Source: an uncultured Thermotogae bacterium
Lineage (GTDB): Bacteria; Bipolaricaulota; Bipolaricaulia; UBA7950; UBA9294
DNA: 64,000 nt
Direction of reading: 5' to 3'
Assembly: GCA_964608345.1 (NCBI GenBank)
Contig: CAZSNG010000001.1
Location: 6,299-70,298, forward strand
A program made the position numbers and the translations under genes. Below are positions 2,013 to 33,098 of this stretch, one piece after another; within the stretch, counting starts at the first letter, position 1, and every line of letters begins with the position of its first letter. The notes beneath the pieces are model-generated. The model saw only the letters and a program-made list of their open reading frames with translations, ran no database searches and was not told the origin of the DNA.

Positions 2013-3022
2013 TCGTGATCATGAAACGCGATGCGACACCGGCGCAGCTGACCAACGTCGTCGCCCGCATCGAGCAGATGGGGTGCCAGGCGCACATCTC
2101 ACGTGGCGAGCAGCGAACGCTGGTGGGGATCATCGGCAACGGGCGGCCGTTCGAGACGGAGCACCTGGAGCAGATGGCGGGCGTGGAGAAGACGATGCCC
2201 GTGACACGTCCGTTCAAGCGCGCCAGCCGGGACTTCCATCCGCAGGACACGCACGTCGTGGTCGGTGACGTGACCGTCGGAGGCGCAGAGATCACCCTGA
2301 TCGCCGGTCCGTGCGCGGTGGAGAGCCAGGAGCAGATGTCGGAGATCGGTCGCGCAGTCAAGGAGGCCGGCGCGCAGATGCTTCGGGGTGGCGCGTACAA
2401 ACCGCGGACCTCGCCGTACTCGTTCCAAGGAATGGGCGAGGAAGGACTGAAGATCCTCGCCCGCGTGCGGGAGGAGACCGGCCTTCCGATCGTCACCGAG
2501 GTGGTCCAGCCGGAGTTGGTTCCGCTGGTCACCCGCTACGCCGACGTGCTGCAGATCGGGGCCCGGAACATGCAGAACTTCGCGCTGCTGCACGCCGTCG
2601 GGCAGGCGCACGGCCCGGTGCTGCTGAAGCGGGGGATGATGTCGACGGTGGAAGAGCTGCTGATGGCCGCTGAGTACATCCTCAGCCACGGCAACGACCG
2701 GATCATCCTGTGCGAGCGTGGCATCCGAACATTCGAGCCGTACACCCGCAACACACTCGACATCAACGCCGTGCCGCTGTTGAAGTCGCTGACCCATCTG
2801 CCCGTGATCGTCGACCCGAGCCACGGCACCGGGAAGTGGGAGCTGGTCGAACCGGTGTCGCGGGCCGCCATTGCAGCCGGCGCCGACGGGCTGATCGTCG
2901 AAGTGCACAATCATCCGGAGGACGCTGTCTCGGATGGCGCGCAGTCTCTTCTGCCGAAACGGTTCGTGCAGCTGCGCGAGTCGGTGAACGCGATCGCGGC
3001 GGCCGTCGGGAGGTCGACGTGA
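2009..3022 (+). CDS. 3-deoxy-7-phosphoheptulonate (DAHP) synthase, type I-beta, with an N-terminal ferredoxin-like/ACT regulatory domain
   Basis: The KDSA/DAHPS core carries the GPCAVES and KPRTSPYSFQG motifs. An N-terminal extension of about 75 aa matches the Thermotoga-type regulated DAHPS architecture. The GTG start overlaps the pheA stop as GTGA. Confidence 0.85.
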   Translation: MIVIMKRDATPAQLTNVVARIEQMGCQAHISRGEQRTLVGIIGNGRPFETEHLEQMAGVEKTMPVTRPFKRASRDFHPQDTHVVVGDVTVGGAEITLIAGPCAVESQEQMSEIGRAVKEAGAQMLRGGAYKPRTSPYSFQGMGEEGLKILARVREETGLPIVTEVVQPELVPLVTRYADVLQIGARNMQNFALLHAVGQAHGPVLLKRGMMSTVEELLMAAEYILSHGNDRIILCERGIRTFEPYTRNTLDINAVPLLKSLTHLPVIVDPSHGTGKWELVEPVSRAAIAAGADGLIVEVHNHPEDAVSDGAQSLLPKRFVQLRESVNAIAAAVGRST

Positions 3023-3879
3023 GACGTCTCGCCGACTGCCGTGTGGTCGTCATCGGCCTCGGGCTGATGGGCGGGTCCCTCGCCGGGGCGCTGCGCGGCC
3101 GATGCCGCGCCGTGGTTGGGCTGGCGAGGCGGTCTGCGACGGTGGAATGCGCACGTCGCCGGGACCTGATCGACGAGGGAACGACCGACGCGGAGGTGGC
3201 CTTCCGCGGCGCCGACGTTGTCGTCTTCGCGACGCCGGTCCGGACGATCGTCGAGCAGCTTCGCGCGATCGGGCCGAGACTCCCTCCCGGTTGCCTGGTC
3301 ATGGACCTCGGGAGCACCAAGGGGGGAATCCTTGCTGCGATGGAGGAGCTTCCGGCAGGAGTCGAACCACTCGGCGCGCACCCGATGTGCGGCAAGGAGA
3401 CGAGCGGCGTGGACGTTGCCGATCCGGCGTTGTACGAGAGTTGCACGTTTATTCTCTGCCCGCTCGGGCGGACGTCCGACGAGGCACTCTCGCTCGGCCG
3501 TGAACTGGTCGACGCGATCGGAGCCGAATCGCTGGTGCTCGACGGCGCACGGCAGGATCGGCTCGTCGCGACGCTCAGCCATCTGCCGTATCTCCTCGCC
3601 TGTGCGCTGGTTCAGACGGCGGATGCGACGACGTCGGCCGACCCTGCGGCGTGGACGATCGTCGCCGGTGGCTATCGCGACACAAGCCGCGTGGCGGGAA
3701 GCGACGTGCAAATGATGCTCGATATCTTGACGACGAACCGGGCTGCCGTCCTTCGTTCGGCGGCGACGTTCCGCGAGCAGTTCGACCGGCTCGTCGAGCT
3801 GATCGAGTCTGGCGCGGAGGACGAGCTGTCCGAGGTCTTGAGCGGCTGCCGCGAGGAGCGAAGGAGAATGTTCCGATGA
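3019..3879 (+). CDS. tyrA: Prephenate/arogenate dehydrogenase
   Basis: A Rossmann motif VVVIGLGLMGGSLA is followed by a TyrA-type catalytic domain. The GTG start overlaps the upstream stop. Confidence 0.85.
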   Translation: MRRLADCRVVVIGLGLMGGSLAGALRGRCRAVVGLARRSATVECARRRDLIDEGTTDAEVAFRGADVVVFATPVRTIVEQLRAIGPRLPPGCLVMDLGSTKGGILAAMEELPAGVEPLGAHPMCGKETSGVDVADPALYESCTFILCPLGRTSDEALSLGRELVDAIGAESLVLDGARQDRLVATLSHLPYLLACALVQTADATTSADPAAWTIVAGGYRDTSRVAGSDVQMMLDILTTNRAAVLRSAATFREQFDRLVELIESGAEDELSEVLSGCREERRRMFR

Positions 3880-26716: not shown

Positions 26717-27238
26717 ATGAGTGCCCCGGAGTCTCAGCCGCTGACGTCGCTTCCTCTCGGAAGGATCGCCGCGCTGCTGGAGACGGCGTACTCCCCGTAC
26801 CTCACCGAAGATCCCGGCGTCGAGGCCGATTGGCGCGCGAACTGGGCGGCGTACGATGCGGACGTGCATGCCCATCCTGCGACGGTTGGCGCGGCCGGCT
26901 TCGCGACCCTCTTGAACGGACGCTCGATCGGCCTGATGACGTGGGATCCACGCGAGGCGCCGGACGTGATCCGGATCGGCCACAACTGCATCGTGCCGGA
27001 GTTCCAGGAGCGTGGATTCGGTGAATGGCAGCTTGAAGCGGCGATGCGGCACTTCGCCGACGAATCTGTCGTCCGGGTGCGCGTGACGACCGGCGAGGGC
27101 GGATTCTTCGCCCCGGCCCAACGGATGTACGTGACGCGAGGCTTCCGGGAGGTCGGACGGGAATGGAGCGACGCGCCGTCACGGATTCGAACGATCGAGT
27201 ACGAGTGGTCTGCGGACGCGGAAGGGACAGGAAGATGA
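26717..27238 (+). CDS. GNAT family N-acetyltransferase
   Basis: GNAT motif A reads QERGFGEWQL. Confidence 0.7.
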   Translation: MSAPESQPLTSLPLGRIAALLETAYSPYLTEDPGVEADWRANWAAYDADVHAHPATVGAAGFATLLNGRSIGLMTWDPREAPDVIRIGHNCIVPEFQERGFGEWQLEAAMRHFADESVVRVRVTTGEGGFFAPAQRMYVTRGFREVGREWSDAPSRIRTIEYEWSADAEGTGR

Positions 27239-27239
27239 C

Positions 27240-27767
27240 GTGCGCGTCCCGTTTGATCCGCGCTTGCTCGTGACCGGCGTCTACCTCGGAGCCGAGCGGG
27301 CGCACCGCTTCGCGTTGCTCCATCCGGACGAGGTCCGTGCTGTGGCGCCGGTTTGCGGGAACGTCCATACGATGCCGATCGGAGCGCTCGACGACGGACC
27401 GCTCCCGTGGCCGCTTGGGTTGGAGGGATTTGATGCGCTCGACCGCGGTTCCCACGCGTGGGACTCCTGCCTGAGCACTCCGCACTACGTGACCACTTCA
27501 GTGCACGAGATCCTCTGGTACAACAGGATGACGCAGGAGGAGCAGGGGATCGGAACGGACGAACTCGACCGCTACGTTGAGCAGTTCGGCGCCATCCCAC
27601 CGGAGCGAGAGGTGTCCTTTGCGCGGGAGCTCCTCTCGGCCGGACTCGACGTGCAGCTCGTGTGGTCGGATGGCGGTCACGGTTGGATCGATCCGGTCAG
27701 GCTCCGTGTCTTCGAGTTCTTCGCCGGCTTCGAGCTGGAGGCGGCTCCGTCTCAGCGCGGCCCGTGA
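27240..27767 (+). CDS. Hypothetical protein (possibly C-terminal half of an alpha/beta-hydrolase-like fold)
   Basis: The ORF starts 2 nt after the GNAT stop. It has a WSDGGHGW His-containing motif near its C-terminus. No nucleophile-elbow half is present. Confidence 0.4.
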   Translation: MRVPFDPRLLVTGVYLGAERAHRFALLHPDEVRAVAPVCGNVHTMPIGALDDGPLPWPLGLEGFDALDRGSHAWDSCLSTPHYVTTSVHEILWYNRMTQEEQGIGTDELDRYVEQFGAIPPEREVSFARELLSAGLDVQLVWSDGGHGWIDPVRLRVFEFFAGFELEAAPSQRGP

Positions 27768-27848
27768 GGGGCGGCTCCTCGGCCCGAACCATCCACAACC
27801 GAAGAACACATCGGGCACACGTGCGCATCACGGGGGCGCCTACCCTCG

Positions 27849-28499
27849 ATGTGGCGCCGGATGACCGGCTGCCGTGACGTCGAGGGAGGTATCGTGACGT
27901 ACTTCAGAGCTGGGCTGCTGATCGCTGCTGCGGCGACGGCTCTCCTCGTCGGCTGTTCCCCCATTCGGGGGCCTGTCGCGGTGGGAACCGCCGACCCGCG
28001 CGAGGGGCTTCCGCCGCTCGAGGTGACGTTCGACGGGGCTCGTTCCTCGGGGTGGTCCTCGCCGATTGCGTCCTACCGATGGGCATTCGGGGACGGAATG
28101 ACGTCGAGCGAAGCGACTACCGCCCACACCTTCGAGGAGAAGGGCGACTACGTCGTGACCTTGAGTGTGGTCGACGAAGACGGACGGGCGGCGGTCGATG
28201 AACTGATCGTTCGGGTATTGAATCGCGTTCCGCACGCGGAGTTCCACTACTCCCCGTACGGTGCGCCGCGTGATCACCCGATTGCCTTCGACGCATCCGA
28301 ATCGTTCGATCCGGACGGGAGCATCGTCGAGTATCGATGGGACTTCGGTGACGGGTCGACGGCGCTCGGCGTTCGCGTCGAGCACACCTTTCCACAACGG
28401 CTCGAGTACCAGGTGACACTGACAGTCGTCGACGACGACGGCACGGAGAACCGTTCCGTTCGCACGGTGCTCGTCGCCGGCTGCGACACGTGCGGCTGA
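27849..28499 (+). CDS. PKD-domain lipoprotein (two PKD repeats)
   Basis: Lipobox LLVGCS is present. The PKD module WAFGDG/WDFGDG ... TLSVVDEDG/TLTVVDDDG repeats twice. Confidence 0.75.
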   Translation: MWRRMTGCRDVEGGIVTYFRAGLLIAAAATALLVGCSPIRGPVAVGTADPREGLPPLEVTFDGARSSGWSSPIASYRWAFGDGMTSSEATTAHTFEEKGDYVVTLSVVDEDGRAAVDELIVRVLNRVPHAEFHYSPYGAPRDHPIAFDASESFDPDGSIVEYRWDFGDGSTALGVRVEHTFPQRLEYQVTLTVVDDDGTENRSVRTVLVAGCDTCG

Positions 28500-28510
28500 C
28501 AAGCGGTCCT

Positions 28511-29140
28511 CTACGGTCGGGGCGGGACCGGCGGTGGGGCGGCGGGCTTCTCGTCCGGCCATTCAGGCGTCTGCTGTAGGCAGAAGGCGCGCGCGACGGT
28601 GATGGCCTTGGAGATCTCGTCGGGATTGATCACGATGCGCCCCGCTGATCGCTGAAGCCAGGAGCAGTTGTCGACGGCACGGCTGGCGTGCTCGTCCCCG
28701 GCGGAGATCGCGCGAAGAACGGCCATTCCGTCGCGAAGCGCGACGCGGTCGAGGTTGATCTTTTCCGCCCACAGCAGCAGCAGCGTCATCGCGAGAACGG
28801 CGTTGCTCACCGAATGGCGCCCCCGCTCGGGGGTTTGGCGCTTGAATGCCTCCCAATACCGGCGATTGAGAAACAGGTACGGCGGCATGGTCCGCGGATG
28901 GCAGGACGCGAGAATGTCCTTGACGGCAATCCCGAGCTCCGTTGCGAGCGATCGAATCGCCACGCGCTCCTCCTCGGGAACCCACTCGGCGAGTTCCTCC
29001 TCCGATCTTCGCAGGGGGCTCCCACCGAGTCCGGCCTGAATCGCCTCGAACGCCGCCTGCCAGATCTCCGGATCGTCGGACTCGGCCACCGTGACATCAT
29101 CGGCCTTAAGAATCAGTGTAAGTCGCGCTTTGATCACCAT
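28511..29140 (-). CDS. Hypothetical protein, possibly a DNA-binding regulator (candidate HTH AIRSLATELGIAVKDIL)
   Basis: Strong RBS AGGAGGAG is present. It is transcribed divergently from the promoter island. Confidence 0.45.
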   Translation of the reverse strand: MVIKARLTLILKADDVTVAESDDPEIWQAAFEAIQAGLGGSPLRRSEEELAEWVPEEERVAIRSLATELGIAVKDILASCHPRTMPPYLFLNRRYWEAFKRQTPERGRHSVSNAVLAMTLLLLWAEKINLDRVALRDGMAVLRAISAGDEHASRAVDNCSWLQRSAGRIVINPDEISKAITVARAFCLQQTPEWPDEKPAAPPPVPPRP

Positions 29141-29173
29141 AGAGTCTCCTCCTAGGGGTTCGGGCTCTCCTTG

Positions 29174-29201
29174 TATTGTAGGTCCAAAAACTCTTGTGTC
29201 A
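29174..29201 (-). promoter_or_regulatory. Near-consensus sigma70 promoter on minus strand (TTGACA, 16-nt spacer, TACAAT) for the 28511-29140 gene
   Basis: Read from the reverse complement of 29174-29201 within an AT-rich island. Confidence 0.5.
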
Positions 29202-29245
29202 AGGCCGTTCCCTGTCTCTCCGCCCTCTCAAGTGGCGTATAGGGT

Positions 29246-29302
29246 TGACAAGGTGCACCTTATATGTATACTAAGGCACACCTTATCTCCATTGTGGAGA
29301 AA
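29246..29302 (+). promoter_or_regulatory. Near-consensus sigma70 promoter (TTGACA, 16-nt spacer, TATACT) overlapped by perfect palindrome AAGGTGCACCTT, a second half-conserved copy AAGGCACACCTT 21 bp downstream, and palindrome TCTCCAttgTGGAGA
   Basis: All elements are seen in sequence. The promoter is back-to-back with the minus-strand promoter. It is followed by RBS GAGGAGG and ATG 29324. Confidence 0.55.
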
Positions 29303-29323
29303 GGGCCGCCTGAGGAGGTCACC

Positions 29324-29551
29324 GATGTTGACAATTACCGTGGGAAGCATCGCAGCACAGGACACGTCGTGGGGAGGCCCGCACGTGCTCCCTGTCCCGA
29401 CCGCGAGGTCGCGGCGCGCGGCGCAAGCCCGCCACGGCGCAGCGCGGGAGGGCGCCCGTGCTCCCGCAAGCGGCGCGGTCTCCCTTGTGTCCCTGCGGTT
29501 GCTCGGATTGGTTGAGATCACCCGAACGAGGGAGCTTCGTCGATCCCCCTG
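29324..29551 (+). CDS. Small ORF (75 aa) downstream of the regulated promoter; coding status uncertain
   Basis: Good RBS spacing. However, the C-terminal two-thirds is Arg/Ala-rich and GC-skewed. It may instead be a structured 5' leader of the MBL-hydrolase operon. Confidence 0.25.
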
Positions 29552-29612
29552 ACATCATGCCGCCCGGTGTCCGGGCGCCTCGCCTCGGATAGACTGGCGG
29601 CGGGAGGCCGAC

Positions 29613-30461
29613 ATGCGGGACACGCCGAAACGGAGGACCCGGATCGTCCTTCTCGGGTCGGGCACGCCGAACGCCGATCCGGAGCGGGCGGGGCCGGCGG
29701 TCGCCGTGGTAGTCGACGAAACCGCATATCTGGTCGACTTCGGCCCGGGCGTCGTCCGACGCGCCGCGGCGGCGTGCGGGAAGGGGATCGTGGCCCTCGA
29801 CCCGCCGCGGCTCGAGTGCGCCTTCTTGACCCATCTGCACTCGGATCACACCGCAGGGTATCCCGACCTGATCCTCACTCCATGGGTCCTTGGTCGGGAC
29901 CGGCCGCTTCGAGTCTACGGGCCGACCGGACTGAAGCAGATGACAGAGCACGTGCTGGCCGCGTATCGGGAGGACGTGCGGGAGCGGCTCGACGGGCTCG
30001 AGCCGGCGAATCGGACCGGGCACCAGGTCGAGGCCGTCGAGATCGAACCGGGTGTCGTCCTCGAAGACGGCCGCGTCACCGTCGAGGCATTCGCGGTGCA
30101 CCACGGATCATGGCCGGCCTACGGGTATCGATTCACGACCTCCGATCGGGTGATCGTGATCTCCGGTGACACGGCGTTGTTCGACGGATGGGAGAGAGCC
30201 TACGCCGGGTGTGACGTTCTGGTTCACGAAGTGCAATCGACTGCGGGACTGGCCCGGCGTGAGCCGGCATGGCGCGCGTACCACACGGCCGTTCACACGA
30301 CGGCAAGGGACTTGGCCGAAGTCGCCGCGATCGTGAAGCCGGAGCTGCTGCTGTTGGTGCACCTGCTGTTCCACGGCGATTCGCAGGCGGATCTCCTGCG
30401 CGAGATCCGAGAGCGATACGACGGCGAGGTCATCTGCGGAACGGACCTAGGCGTCTACTGA
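29613..30461 (+). CDS. MBL-fold metallo-hydrolase (RNase Z / ElaC-like)
   Basis: Carries the HLHSDH metallo-beta-lactamase motif. RBS GGGAGG is present. Confidence 0.75.
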   Translation: MRDTPKRRTRIVLLGSGTPNADPERAGPAVAVVVDETAYLVDFGPGVVRRAAAACGKGIVALDPPRLECAFLTHLHSDHTAGYPDLILTPWVLGRDRPLRVYGPTGLKQMTEHVLAAYREDVRERLDGLEPANRTGHQVEAVEIEPGVVLEDGRVTVEAFAVHHGSWPAYGYRFTTSDRVIVISGDTALFDGWERAYAGCDVLVHEVQSTAGLARREPAWRAYHTAVHTTARDLAEVAAIVKPELLLLVHLLFHGDSQADLLREIRERYDGEVICGTDLGVY

Positions 30462-30527
30462 TCTCGAGCGCATGCCAGGATGGCGCCCCCCGTTGACCGG
30501 AGTATGATAACGCCGAGGTGATGCCGC

Positions 30528-31280
30528 GTGGAGAGACTGCAGATCGTCGAGCGGATCGTCCAGTACCGTTTCGAGCCCGAGTCGGGGAAGCACTACGGGT
30601 TCAATCTCACCGCCTTGCTCGATGAGGAGGCCGGGCGTGCTCTCCTGATCGACACGGCGTACGAGGAGCAGGCGGCAGCCGCGTATGCCGATCTGACGCG
30701 CCGCGGGTTCGAGTTGGCGACGGTGGTCCTCTCCCACTTCCACCCCGATCACGTGATGGGCCTGAAGGTGCTCCCGCGATGCACGACATACGGCAGCGTG
30801 CGGTGCGAGGAGACGCTGCGGCTGTACACCGAGGCCGAGGAGCGGCTTGCGTTCACGCCGACCGATCCGGTCGGCAACGGTGCGACGGTCACGTTCGGAC
30901 CGTTTGGCCTCACCTTTCGGCTCGCGCCGGGCCACTCCCCGTGCTCGATGTACACCCTCATCGACGATCGCTTCGTCCACGTGGCGGACAACATCATGAC
31001 GTCGAACGCCGGGCAGGACATCTTGCCGTGGGCTGCGTACGACCTGATCGAGGATCACATCCGGTCCTTGGGCGCGCTTGCGGAGATCGGTTCGCGCACG
31101 CTCCTGCTCAGCCACGGTGTCGCTCTGGCGGAGGAGGATGCGATCCGGGAGGCGATCGACAACCGCGTCTCCTACTTCCGGGCGGTCCTTGCCGGCGAGG
31201 GGCGACTTCCGTACGAGGAGGCCGTCGCCGGCTGTAGTTGCGACTTCCTGCACAAGGAGTGGCTGATTCGGACGGAGTAG
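30528..31280 (+). CDS. MBL-fold metallo-hydrolase
   Basis: Carries the SHFHPDH motif and downstream His/Asp ligands. Confidence 0.75.
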   Translation: MERLQIVERIVQYRFEPESGKHYGFNLTALLDEEAGRALLIDTAYEEQAAAAYADLTRRGFELATVVLSHFHPDHVMGLKVLPRCTTYGSVRCEETLRLYTEAEERLAFTPTDPVGNGATVTFGPFGLTFRLAPGHSPCSMYTLIDDRFVHVADNIMTSNAGQDILPWAAYDLIEDHIRSLGALAEIGSRTLLLSHGVALAEEDAIREAIDNRVSYFRAVLAGEGRLPYEEAVAGCSCDFLHKEWLIRTE

Positions 31281-31374
31281 CCAGGCACGTAGCGACTTCC
31301 CCTGAGCACGTCCGAAGACGGCCGCCGCCCTGGCCCTCTTGTCCTCATCGTAACGATAAGGTATTCTCAGATGT

Positions 31375-32505
31375 GTGATGATCTTTCTTTCGCGCGCGGA
31401 CGCGCTTCCCGGCCGGTCGCCTCGGGCCCTACGGCTCGGATACCTCTTTGGAGGCCTCCTACTCGTTGCGCTTGGAGCGGTGGCGGTCGCGTTCGAAGCG
31501 GATTGGGAGATGCTTCTGATCTACGACGCCGGCGCGGCGAAGTGGGAGATGGAGGGAGAGCTGGCCGTTGCCTGGTCGCGCGTGGGGTGGGATATCGGGT
31601 GCGAGATAGCGTTCGAGGAGTCGGTGTGGGATCGAGTCGAGGTCGAGGCGTCCTTCGAAGCGGAATTGGGCAGGATCGGCGCAGCCATCCGATGGGATCC
31701 GGTCATGCGTACGTTCACCAAGCTGTCGCTCGAGGCCTGGATCGAGGCGGCGGGGATCGACGCGAAATGCGACTTCGATCTGTACGCCACTCGCTGCTGG
31801 ACCGATCTGAAGACGGCGTGGGAGGTCGCCGGCTGTGAGATCGATATCGCTGTGCGCCTCGGCGCGTCGAAGCGGTTCTGCGTCGACTTCTACCGGCTCG
31901 ACGCCGCGGTGTCCCTCGAGGTCGAGGACATCCCGATTGACGTAGATGCGCGCTTCACCGCGAAACGGGGATTCGAACGGCTCGACGTCGAAACGGCCTT
32001 CACGGTCCCGCCCTGGCTGGCGATCGATGTGGACGCTCGCTGGACGGCCGACGGTCGCACCGTGTCATTCGAGTCGGAGATGGAAACGCTGGCGTCTTGT
32101 GAGGGAGCCTCAGCCTCGATCGAGCTACTCGGAGAGGCCGTGCTGACGGATTTGCTGCACCTCGAGGGACTGCGCGTCACCGGCTTGGGGTTCGAGGCGG
32201 CGTGGAACGGTGTCTGGGTCGAGAGCCGGACGAGCTTCGATCCGGGACGAAACAAGTCCGTGACCGGGCACAAGGCGTACGGTCGGGCCGTCGGAGTCGG
32301 GTGTGACGTGGACGGTCGATGCGATCGGGAGGTCGAGGTCGCGCTGTGGGCGCTCTCCGTCGATCCGTCGAGGGTCCGGGATTGGGATCGGACGGTGGCC
32401 GAGATCTCCGTCCGTCTCGACGCATCGTTGGAGTTCTCCCTCGCCGCGTCCCTCGAGTCCGGAGCGCTCCACGCAGTGGAGTTGGAGGTCGAGCTCGGAG
32501 GATAG
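31375..32505 (+). CDS. Secreted or membrane-anchored beta-rich repeat protein (family member 1 of 3)
   Basis: An N-terminal hydrophobic segment is followed by alternating acidic/hydrophobic beta-strand-like repeats (VEVEASFEAEL, LEVEDIPIDVDARF, VELEVELGG). Confidence 0.55.
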   Translation: MMIFLSRADALPGRSPRALRLGYLFGGLLLVALGAVAVAFEADWEMLLIYDAGAAKWEMEGELAVAWSRVGWDIGCEIAFEESVWDRVEVEASFEAELGRIGAAIRWDPVMRTFTKLSLEAWIEAAGIDAKCDFDLYATRCWTDLKTAWEVAGCEIDIAVRLGASKRFCVDFYRLDAAVSLEVEDIPIDVDARFTAKRGFERLDVETAFTVPPWLAIDVDARWTADGRTVSFESEMETLASCEGASASIELLGEAVLTDLLHLEGLRVTGLGFEAAWNGVWVESRTSFDPGRNKSVTGHKAYGRAVGVGCDVDGRCDREVEVALWALSVDPSRVRDWDRTVAEISVRLDASLEFSLAASLESGALHAVELEVELGG

Positions 32506-32555
32506 GGCGGCTGCGAGTATCGGGCGAGAGCGTTCGAAGTGCCTTGGTTCGGCGC

Positions 32556-32693
32556 CTTGCGCCGGTCCGCCTCGTGCGGATACACTCCATGTTGTTGGTA
32601 GTTTGCAGTCGCTTCCATGGAGTCCATGTTGCGAGGTCCAGTGAGAGCGCTCTGCTTCGCTAAGGCTCCCAACATAGAGGAGGATTGGTAGGA
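32556..32693 (+). promoter_or_regulatory. Second csp promoter (TTGCGC, 18-nt spacer, TACACT) plus conserved 5'UTR
   Basis: Same hexamers and same UTR element as the first csp copy (21198-21338). Confidence 0.55.
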
Positions 32694-32906
32694 ATGTCCG
32701 ACCGCGAAACCGGTACCGTGAAGTGGTTCAACGACAGCAAGGGCTTCGGCTTCATCGAGCGTGAGGGCGGCGAGGACGTCTTCGTGCACTTCAGCTCCAT
32801 CCGTGGCGAGGGGTTCAAGACCCTGAGCGATGGCCAGAAGGTCGAATTCACCCTGGGGCAGGGCCAGAAAGGCCCCCAGGCCCTGGACGTCGAAGCCGTC
32901 TCCTAG
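32694..32906 (+). CDS. cspA: Cold-shock protein (second copy)
   Basis: Shares about 85% amino-acid identity with the first copy. RBS GAGGAGG is present. Confidence 0.92.
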
Positions 32907-32945
32907 GGATCTCAACAGACGAACCGGACATCCTGTCCGCAGAGA

Positions 32946-32981
32946 GCGCGGCGCGCGGAACCCCGCGCGTCGCGCCGTTTT
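32946..32981 (+). terminator. Rho-independent terminator after second csp (stem GCGCGGCGCGCGG/CCGCGCGTCGCGC plus GTTTT)
   Basis: Same stem sequence as the first csp terminator (21575-21612). Confidence 0.65.
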
Positions 32982-33098
32982 GCATCCGGGCTCCCGTTCG
33001 CACGATGGATTGACCCGCGCCTTCATACTCCCGTCACACGGTCGCCCCCTCTCGCCCACATGGAAGCGCAACACTGTAGGCGGTCCAGAAGGACGGTG

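Follow-up and report, generated by a model that had tools for sequence, protein, structure and literature searches.

The short region at positions 29141–29323 of the window, by which we mean the whole 64-kb stretch of Candidatus Bipolaricaulota DNA that was analysed, appears to be a conserved control region in which a winged-helix regulator specific to Bipolaricaulota would repress a plus-strand promoter (P+) through palindromic operators and would also regulate its own expression. We assign this reading a probability of roughly 0.6. The part of it that is already known is a classical self-regulated switch of ordinary architecture, and such textbook regulatory logic does not overturn current understanding. 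What is newer is that the regulator belongs to an unnamed protein family and that its original target gene has been lost in this genome. To our knowledge, no member of the phylum Bipolaricaulota is in culture and amenable to genetics, and hardly any transcription-factor sites are known from it. A search of the literature on the motif described below and on Bipolaricaulota regulators yielded nothing relevant. The region supplies a testable operator–regulator pair for these bacteria.

In terms of promoter architecture, the region carries two divergent promoters, each agreeing with the sigma-70-type consensus at 11 of 12 positions. P+ (29245–29272, plus strand) consists of TTGACA at 29245–29250, a 16-nt spacer and TATACT at 29267–29272. 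The minus promoter, P− (29175–29202, minus strand), consists of TTGACA at 29202–29197, a 16-nt spacer and TACAAT at 29180–29175. Both lie exactly where a preliminary description of this DNA had placed back-to-back near-consensus promoters, and both strands show the features of a sigma-70-type divergent pair, namely hexamers near TTGACA/TATAAT and a spacer in the 16–18-nt range. A promoter scan of the 6 kb from 27000 to 33000 returned 2 sites against 0.4 expected from shuffles, and only one further promoter matching at 11 of 12 positions, at 533, was found in the 60 kb scanned. Transcription from P+ is predicted to start near 29278–29280 and that from P− near 29168, the latter leaving a predicted 28-nt leader on the regulator mRNA. 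With respect to base composition, the region had been called AT-rich, which is accurate relative to the genome and not in absolute terms: its GC content is 52.5%, compared with 67.1% window-wide, and the lowest-GC 183-bp stretch of the window begins at 29106.

Two operator-like palindromes overlap P+. The first, O1 (29248–29263), is the 16-bp sequence ACAAGGTGCACCTTAT and spans the end of the −35 hexamer and most of the P+ spacer. The second, O2 (29271–29286; CTAAGGCACACCTTAT), begins within the −10 hexamer, of which it takes in the last 2 nt, and reaches to about +8. Their core palindromes are AAGGTGCACCTT (29250–29261) and AAGGCACACCTT (29273–29284), the former being the spacer palindrome of the preliminary description, which is indeed present and overlaps P+. 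The related copy reported downstream of it is also present, at a distance of 23 bp from start to start (an 11-bp gap, or ~2.2 helical turns) rather than the 21 bp, or two helical turns, originally given. Both sites have half-site centres ~10 bp apart and overlap the core promoter, as repressor operators do. The number of AAGGTGCACCTT/AAGGCACACCTT palindromes was reached in 0 of 100 shuffles. When the 64-kb window was searched for the motif, the palindrome proved not to be scattered: the only two exact AAGG-N4-CCTT sites were O1 and O2, both at P+, against an expectation for 64 kb of about 0.6, an estimate from base composition. The two other consensus-like promoters of the window are without the AAGG/CCTT motif.

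A differently spaced inverted repeat, O3, is found on the regulator side. Read on the minus strand it is AAGG-N12-CCTA (29153–29172), and it extends from 2 nt past the minus −10 hexamer, across the predicted P− start, to the Shine–Dalgarno sequence of the regulator gene, which its CCTA arm abuts. The 12-nt gap, compared with 4 nt in O1 and O2, is beyond the span of a single dimer with a 10-bp half-site spacing.

The conservation of these elements was assessed in 55 non-redundant upstream regions taken from 95 fetched loci; the 55 loci are mutually related, such that the counts given here overstate the number of independent observations. P+ is found in essentially every one of the 55 relatives, and its spacer measures 16 nt in 18 of 18 members of the window's own clade; a counterpart of P− lies at the equivalent position in nearly all 55. 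The locus shows near-consensus sigma-70-type promoters in use in a 67%-GC lineage. An inverted-repeat scan of the 55 upstream regions that used no prior motif ranked AAGG-N4-CCTT first (17/55 regions versus 0.4% of background windows), followed by TAAG-N6-CTTA (13/55) and AAGG-N12-CCTT (11/55, with 0.5% of background windows). Allowing at most 1 mismatch, the 55 loci hold 44 AAGG-N4-CCTT sites, compared with 5.0 ± 2.2 in shuffles.

The positions of these sites are also fixed. Measured from the start of the plus −35 hexamer, O1-type sites begin at +5 to +8, within the spacer, in 16 of the 55 loci, and O2-type sites begin at +28/+29, right after the −10 hexamer, in 12 of them. Seven more sites fall at −91 to −94, in the leader of the regulator gene beside its Shine–Dalgarno sequence. 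Within the clade, the consensus across P+ is ATAaGG-TTGACA-AgGtCCgCCATAT-ATgTATACT-AAGG..aaCCTTAt and that of O1 is AAgGtCCgCCATAT; on the other side, AAGG begins 2–3 nt past the minus −10 hexamer in 13 of 18 clade relatives, as read by eye from the alignment table. A site within 1 mismatch of AAGG-N4-CCTT is present in only 29 of the 55 relatives, and the remainder have degenerate variants such as ATATGG, CCTAAT and CCATAT.

AT-rich hexamers are commoner in low-GC spacers than in coding sequence, and both hexamers and palindromes could in principle be the chance product of a low-GC intergenic stretch. We give this explanation practically no weight in view of the two promoters found where 0.4 were expected and the failure of any shuffle to match the motif count, and it is refuted by the comparative data, in which sequence and position are kept across the 55 loci.

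From these observations we infer the following scheme. A dimer of the regulator would bind the 16-bp palindromes by way of half-sites (T/C)AAGG and CCTT(A/T), with 10 bp between their centres. Occupancy of both O1 and O2 would keep RNA polymerase from binding or from escaping the promoter and so repress the plus transcript, and O3, which lies over the start and leader of the regulator's own transcript, would mediate negative autoregulation. Some signal would then release the regulator from DNA. The assignment of the regulator to these sites draws on gene context. Across the 55 loci the operators accompany the regulator gene whatever the other neighbours, and the divergent gene varies from an intact GNAT gene, to a small ORF with metallo-β-lactamase-fold (MBL) genes, to a small ORF with a Phg_2220_C gene and a DnaC-like gene. 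Because the regulator gene is constant and the genes downstream of P+ vary, the regulator is the best candidate for the protein that binds the sites. The earlier proposal that it is the cognate repressor stands to this extent, by virtue of position-conserved sites beside its gene amid changing neighbours.

A different possibility is that the operators are real and are read by another trans-acting factor, or that the 209-aa regulator acts as an activator or dual regulator. The family has no characterized member, and its distant members occur in other gene contexts, both of which leave room for such a reading. We nonetheless consider it unlikely, given that sites in the window occur only beside the regulator gene and that they follow this gene into varied neighbourhoods. 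The GNAT protein would be one such factor, and it is missing from the clade of the window, where the operator sites are best conserved; the GNAT protein is therefore not the binder. As for activation, operators placed within an optimal 16–17-nt spacer and over −10 to +8 have the geometry of repression, not activation, and this is the placement seen here on a near-consensus promoter.

The AAGG and CCTT elements might alternatively act in RNA, forming leader hairpins through which the stability of the mRNA, or ribosome access to its binding site, is controlled. In sequence, CCUU is similar to an anti-Shine–Dalgarno sequence and AAGG to a Shine–Dalgarno sequence. In the plus leader, CCUU (29281–84) can pair with AAGG (29302–05) around a TCTCCA/TGGAGA hairpin; CCTT abuts the Shine–Dalgarno sequence in many regulator leaders, as CCTTAGGAGG; and hairpins recur at one position across relatives. 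Set against this, the predicted start sites lie downstream of O1, of the left half of O2 and of O3's AAGG arm, all of which would hence be untranscribed, and for O1 an upstream position means that it must act as DNA. The fold energies (z = −0.93 and +0.26) are also no better than those of shuffles, and a 4-bp stem is weak. An RNA-level mechanism for the motif as a whole is thus improbable in our estimation, somewhat more so than the preceding alternative, and it would account for the third palindrome at most.

This third palindrome, TCTCCA-ttg-TGGAGA (29286–29300, plus strand), does lie ahead of the ribosome-binding site as first described, and is probably a 5′-UTR RNA hairpin of the P+ transcript, the CCUU/AAGG flanks lengthening its stem. 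The plus leader folds at −15.5 kcal/mol, to which the z of −0.93 belongs. When each sequence was folded singly, many of the 18 clade relatives were predicted to form a hairpin at the matching position, the stems differing from one another (UCUCCA/UGGAGA, GCUCCU/GGGGCU, CUCCCC/GGGGAG, CGCCCC/GGGGCG and ACCGC/GCGGU). The hairpin was missed by RNAalifold when the plus leaders were aligned with MAFFT, since indels put it out of register in the alignment. Since the stem sequence changes and the place of the hairpin is constant, the element resembles a 5′-UTR RNA hairpin more than an operator, and the data are suggestive of that assignment; the palindrome itself is not conserved in sequence. Searches against Rfam gave no match for the whole window at the gathering threshold and only a spurious miRNA for the island at E ≤ 5, so that no known RNA element was identified.

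Turning to the putative autoregulator itself, the 209-aa winged-helix protein is encoded on the minus strand at 28511–29140 and belongs to an unnamed family. Its Shine–Dalgarno sequence, GGAGG (29148–29152, minus strand), is located 7 nt before the ATG (29140–29138), and AGGAGG-type sequences are kept ahead of this ATG in relatives. The protein matches no Pfam or NCBIfam family at E ≤ 0.01 and has no PHROGs or PADLOC match. We identified 115 homologous clusters at 53–88% identity, all from Candidatus Bipolaricaulota where the source is named, and the gene is present in 13 species genomes at one locus apiece. A profile search of 1.84 billion representatives extended the family to 233 clusters (at 50% identity) of ~200-aa unnamed proteins, one of them from Desulfobacula. 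These clusters define an unnamed winged-helix family that lies outside Pfam and NCBIfam.

A first AlphaFold model built with close homologues only reached a pLDDT of 73. After distant members were added, the pLDDT rose to 91.5 with a pTM of 0.75, and this model holds a winged-helix DNA-binding domain; the helix-turn-helix earlier regarded as plausible is accordingly seen as a winged helix in a confident model. The domain occupies the C-terminal half of the protein (helices 113–127, 135–144 and 152–158, followed by the hairpin of strands 162–165 and 168–171 in the model) and is its most conserved part. D149, H151, A152, R154, A155, N158, C159 and W161 are invariant among Bipolaricaulota members, and the putative recognition-helix segment D149–W161, with these eight invariant residues, fits with a common half-site. 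Outside the winged helix, no structural analogue was found for the remaining regions, which are a beta hairpin and helix at the N-terminus, a variable linker, and a helical segment containing CHPR. The fold match is confined to the one domain, with a moderate Z of at most 7.6. The first, lower-confidence model gave no match at E < 0.9 when searched with Foldseek against the PDB, and a PDB sequence-profile search with the protein gave only thioredoxin (E = 0.2), which we took as noise.

The layout of the locus resembles that of the autoregulated divergent loci of MarR-family regulators, such as MexR at mexR–mexAB, HucR–hucO and OhrR–ohrA. The 209-aa protein shares with MarR proteins a winged helix-turn-helix fold and does not match the MarR profiles PF01047, PF12802 and PF13463. 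A second point of comparison is the Tn10 tet region, in which TetR represses both its target tetA and itself from two tandem palindromic operators 11 bp apart, between back-to-back promoters. Divergent promoters and two operators with an 11-bp gap overlapping a promoter are found here too. Unlike in the tet region, both sites lie on P+, with a differently spaced repeat over the regulator leader, and whereas TetR has an N-terminal TetR-type helix-turn-helix, the present protein has a winged helix and is related to TetR in neither sequence nor fold.

The Rrf2 family (IscR, NsrR) combines an N-terminal winged helix with three cluster-binding cysteines, and the 209-aa protein likewise pairs a winged helix with three widely conserved cysteines. 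In contrast to Rrf2 proteins, it has no PF02082 match, its winged helix is in the C-terminal half, and its cysteines (C80, C159 and C187), though common in the wider family, are not present in every member. It is speculation on our part that these three cysteines might sense a redox or metal signal. With no profile match and a fold match limited to one domain, the protein is outside MarR, Rrf2, TetR and any other defined family.

The wider family shows a second type of gene arrangement. Distant members come from Desulfobacula and from unnamed metagenome bins, and at three of their loci (L023 5001–6347, L096 3001–4358 and L097 3001–4850) the family member is followed by a conserved ~240-aa protein on the same strand. 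Two of these partner proteins share 49% identity, each with a weak DUF4145 match (E about 0.02), and the wider family may form a two-gene module. The AAGG palindromes are not shared by the distant members L023, L024, L096 and L097; given this and their different arrangement, the general role of the family may differ from that of a simple local repressor.

With regard to the genes that P+ would control, the divergent gene in roughly 20 of the 55 loci encodes a ~330–348-aa protein with an N-terminal GNAT domain (PF00583, 1e-18 to 1e-20). As GNAT is the sole recurring recognizable partner, it is probably ancestral, and the ancestral target of P+ was probably this ~330-aa GNAT acetyltransferase. 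The GNAT gene is absent in the clade of the window, where P+ is followed instead by a small ORF of 75 aa (29325–29552, plus strand, ATG at 29325) that is annotated by gene callers and preceded, 6 nt before its ATG, by a Shine–Dalgarno sequence, GAGGAGG (29312–29318, plus strand), invariant in the clade. The GNAT gene has been deleted in the clade save for its first ~230 nt, and the 75-aa ORF is another reading frame of this 5′ remnant. The partnership with GNAT does not reproduce a GNAT toxin–antitoxin system of the TacAT/AtaRT type, in which a small antitoxin gene precedes a same-strand gene for a ~170-aa GNAT toxin; here the partner GNAT is ~330 aa, divergent, and absent from the window.

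Descent of the small ORF from GNAT is traced through a short match, EEVTDVDNY in the GNAT frame of the window versus LAEVAYVEDY in intact GNAT genes, together with colinearity and a graded series of relatives; over a longer stretch of the same frame, the window reads EEVTDVDNYRGK where intact genes read LAEVAYVEDYRRIG. Likewise, LRLLGLVEI, which is conserved at the C-terminus of the small ORF, corresponds to the GNAT segment (F)ARxGxxGxxWSI read in the alternative frame. A tblastn search with intact GNAT proteins against 29101–31400 of the window gave no significant match.

Several features point to probable translation of the small ORF in this clade. Its frame is open in every one of the 18 clade members, at 71–82 aa and with conserved ends, and the ORF has a pN/pS of 0.70 in its own frame versus 0.93 and 1.15 in the other two. 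The spacer between the Shine–Dalgarno sequence and the ATG varies within the clade in sequence and by 1 nt in length, from which it follows that this stretch is not coding. One could go further and regard the ORF as a young gene born by overprinting, its frame kept under purifying selection across the clade after GNAT loss, and the regulator as a new, possibly cysteine-based, winged-helix sensor family that now controls a newly arisen peptide. The ancestral promoter and operators would in that event have been retained alongside the GNAT 5′ remnant, and the ribosome-binding site GAGGAGG would have been recruited from former GAG GAG GTC codons (Glu-Glu-Val). This extended account is tentative, and we hold it to be clearly less probable than the plain switch. 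In intact GNAT genes (those at L051, L059, L061, L071 and L092 among them), the alternative frame is often open for 71 codons, and on synonymous-codon resampling of such genes it stayed open in 20–77% of resamples; openness of the frame is chance-expected and therefore gives no evidence of selection on it before GNAT was lost. The small ORF is nonetheless a tidy candidate for the birth of a gene from the alternative frame of a dying one.

Beyond the small ORF lie two MBL-fold hydrolase genes on the plus strand, namely MBL1 (29613–30461; 282 aa, RNase Z-like; Lactamase_B_2, 3.5e-21) and a second gene for a 250-aa protein (30528–31280; Lactamase_B, 3.1e-13). No canonical terminator was found between 29552 and 29613, and read-through into the MBL genes is therefore plausible and would probably be how both are transcribed. 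The preliminary description had the plus side driving the small ORF and these two genes. That remains tenable by read-through, with the qualification that the commonest and probably ancestral target is GNAT and that the MBL pair occurs in some clade members only: it comes next after the small ORF in the window and in L004 and L010, an extra gene is inserted in L011, and other genes take its place in L012, L013 and L022. By this distribution, the MBL genes are non-conserved passengers. Sub-threshold matches of MBL1 include RNase Z, guanitoxin GntH and a cyclic-nucleotide-degrading phosphodiesterase model, and its precomputed annotation is a weak Anti-Pycsar Apyc1; all of its sub-threshold matches are far under curated cut-offs.

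Two further gene sets were noted downstream of P+ in relatives. In one subgroup (L008, L015, L016, L017 and L020), a conserved trio of genes lies about 1–3 kb past P+, after GNAT or after a short ORF replacing it. The products are 55–70 aa, 244 aa and ~270 aa long; the second is a DUF4004 protein with an N-terminus that, by eye, resembles MerR, and the third matches bactofilin faintly. In two more distant relatives, L006 (about 2347–3753) and L018 (at the equivalent position), P+ and the small ORF precede a phage-type replication module, made up of genes for a Phg_2220_C-domain protein and a DnaC/IstB-like AAA ATPase. This arrangement suggests insertion of an element into what had been the GNAT gene; L018 additionally carries what we take, judging from its sequence, to be a probable Rrf2-type regulator.

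A CI/Cro-like lysis–lysogeny or maintenance switch of a horizontally acquired prophage or integrative element would present a similar layout, its divergent promoters and operators flanked by a regulator and a small ORF on opposite sides, and the Phg_2220_C and DnaC-like genes behind the small ORF in L006 and L018 could be seen in the same light. The usual partner of the regulator is a GNAT gene rather than a phage gene, and neither homology to a phage repressor nor adjacent phage genes were found in the window, where the neighbours are ordinary chromosomal genes. Searches of the five genes against PHROGs and PADLOC gave no matches save a generic metal-dependent hydrolase for MBL1, and no relative of the 209-aa family was present among 2.9 million viral contigs. 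The regulator, small ORF and MBL genes have GC3 values of 0.74–0.87, compared with 0.77–0.81 in neighbouring genes, and the MBL pair and an RNase T gene stay beside the regulator in close relatives. With PHROGs/PADLOC, viral contigs, GC3 and neighbour conservation all against it, we regard a phage-type switch as very improbable.

On the same grounds of neighbour-like GC3, shared neighbour genes and empty phage and viral searches, a foreign or phage origin of the cassette was dropped. The possibility of horizontal acquisition raised at the outset is not borne out, as GC3 matches that of the neighbours, close relatives keep the adjoining genes, and phage, defence and viral searches gave no matches. 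A reading as a defence system was also dropped, PADLOC being without a relevant match.

A separate observation concerns the third consensus promoter of the window, TTGACA-17-TATGAT at 533–561. It is followed by an ORF at 572–652 that encodes 26 aa, MHRETDRDARQLPSRTLAAFFYYFWC, with six aromatics within its last eight residues; the ATG lies ~4 nt past the predicted start, which would make the mRNA nearly leaderless. A search of this region against Rfam returned only a weak terminator-like match under threshold. Further downstream are a strong intrinsic terminator (699–732) with a 15-bp stem and a T-run, a chorismate mutase type I gene (790–1164; PF07736, 9e-43) and then a prephenate dehydratase gene (about 1161–2012; PF00800, 1e-60). 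On the basis of this order of elements, the region 533–1164 is likely a leader-peptide attenuator for phenylalanine biosynthesis.
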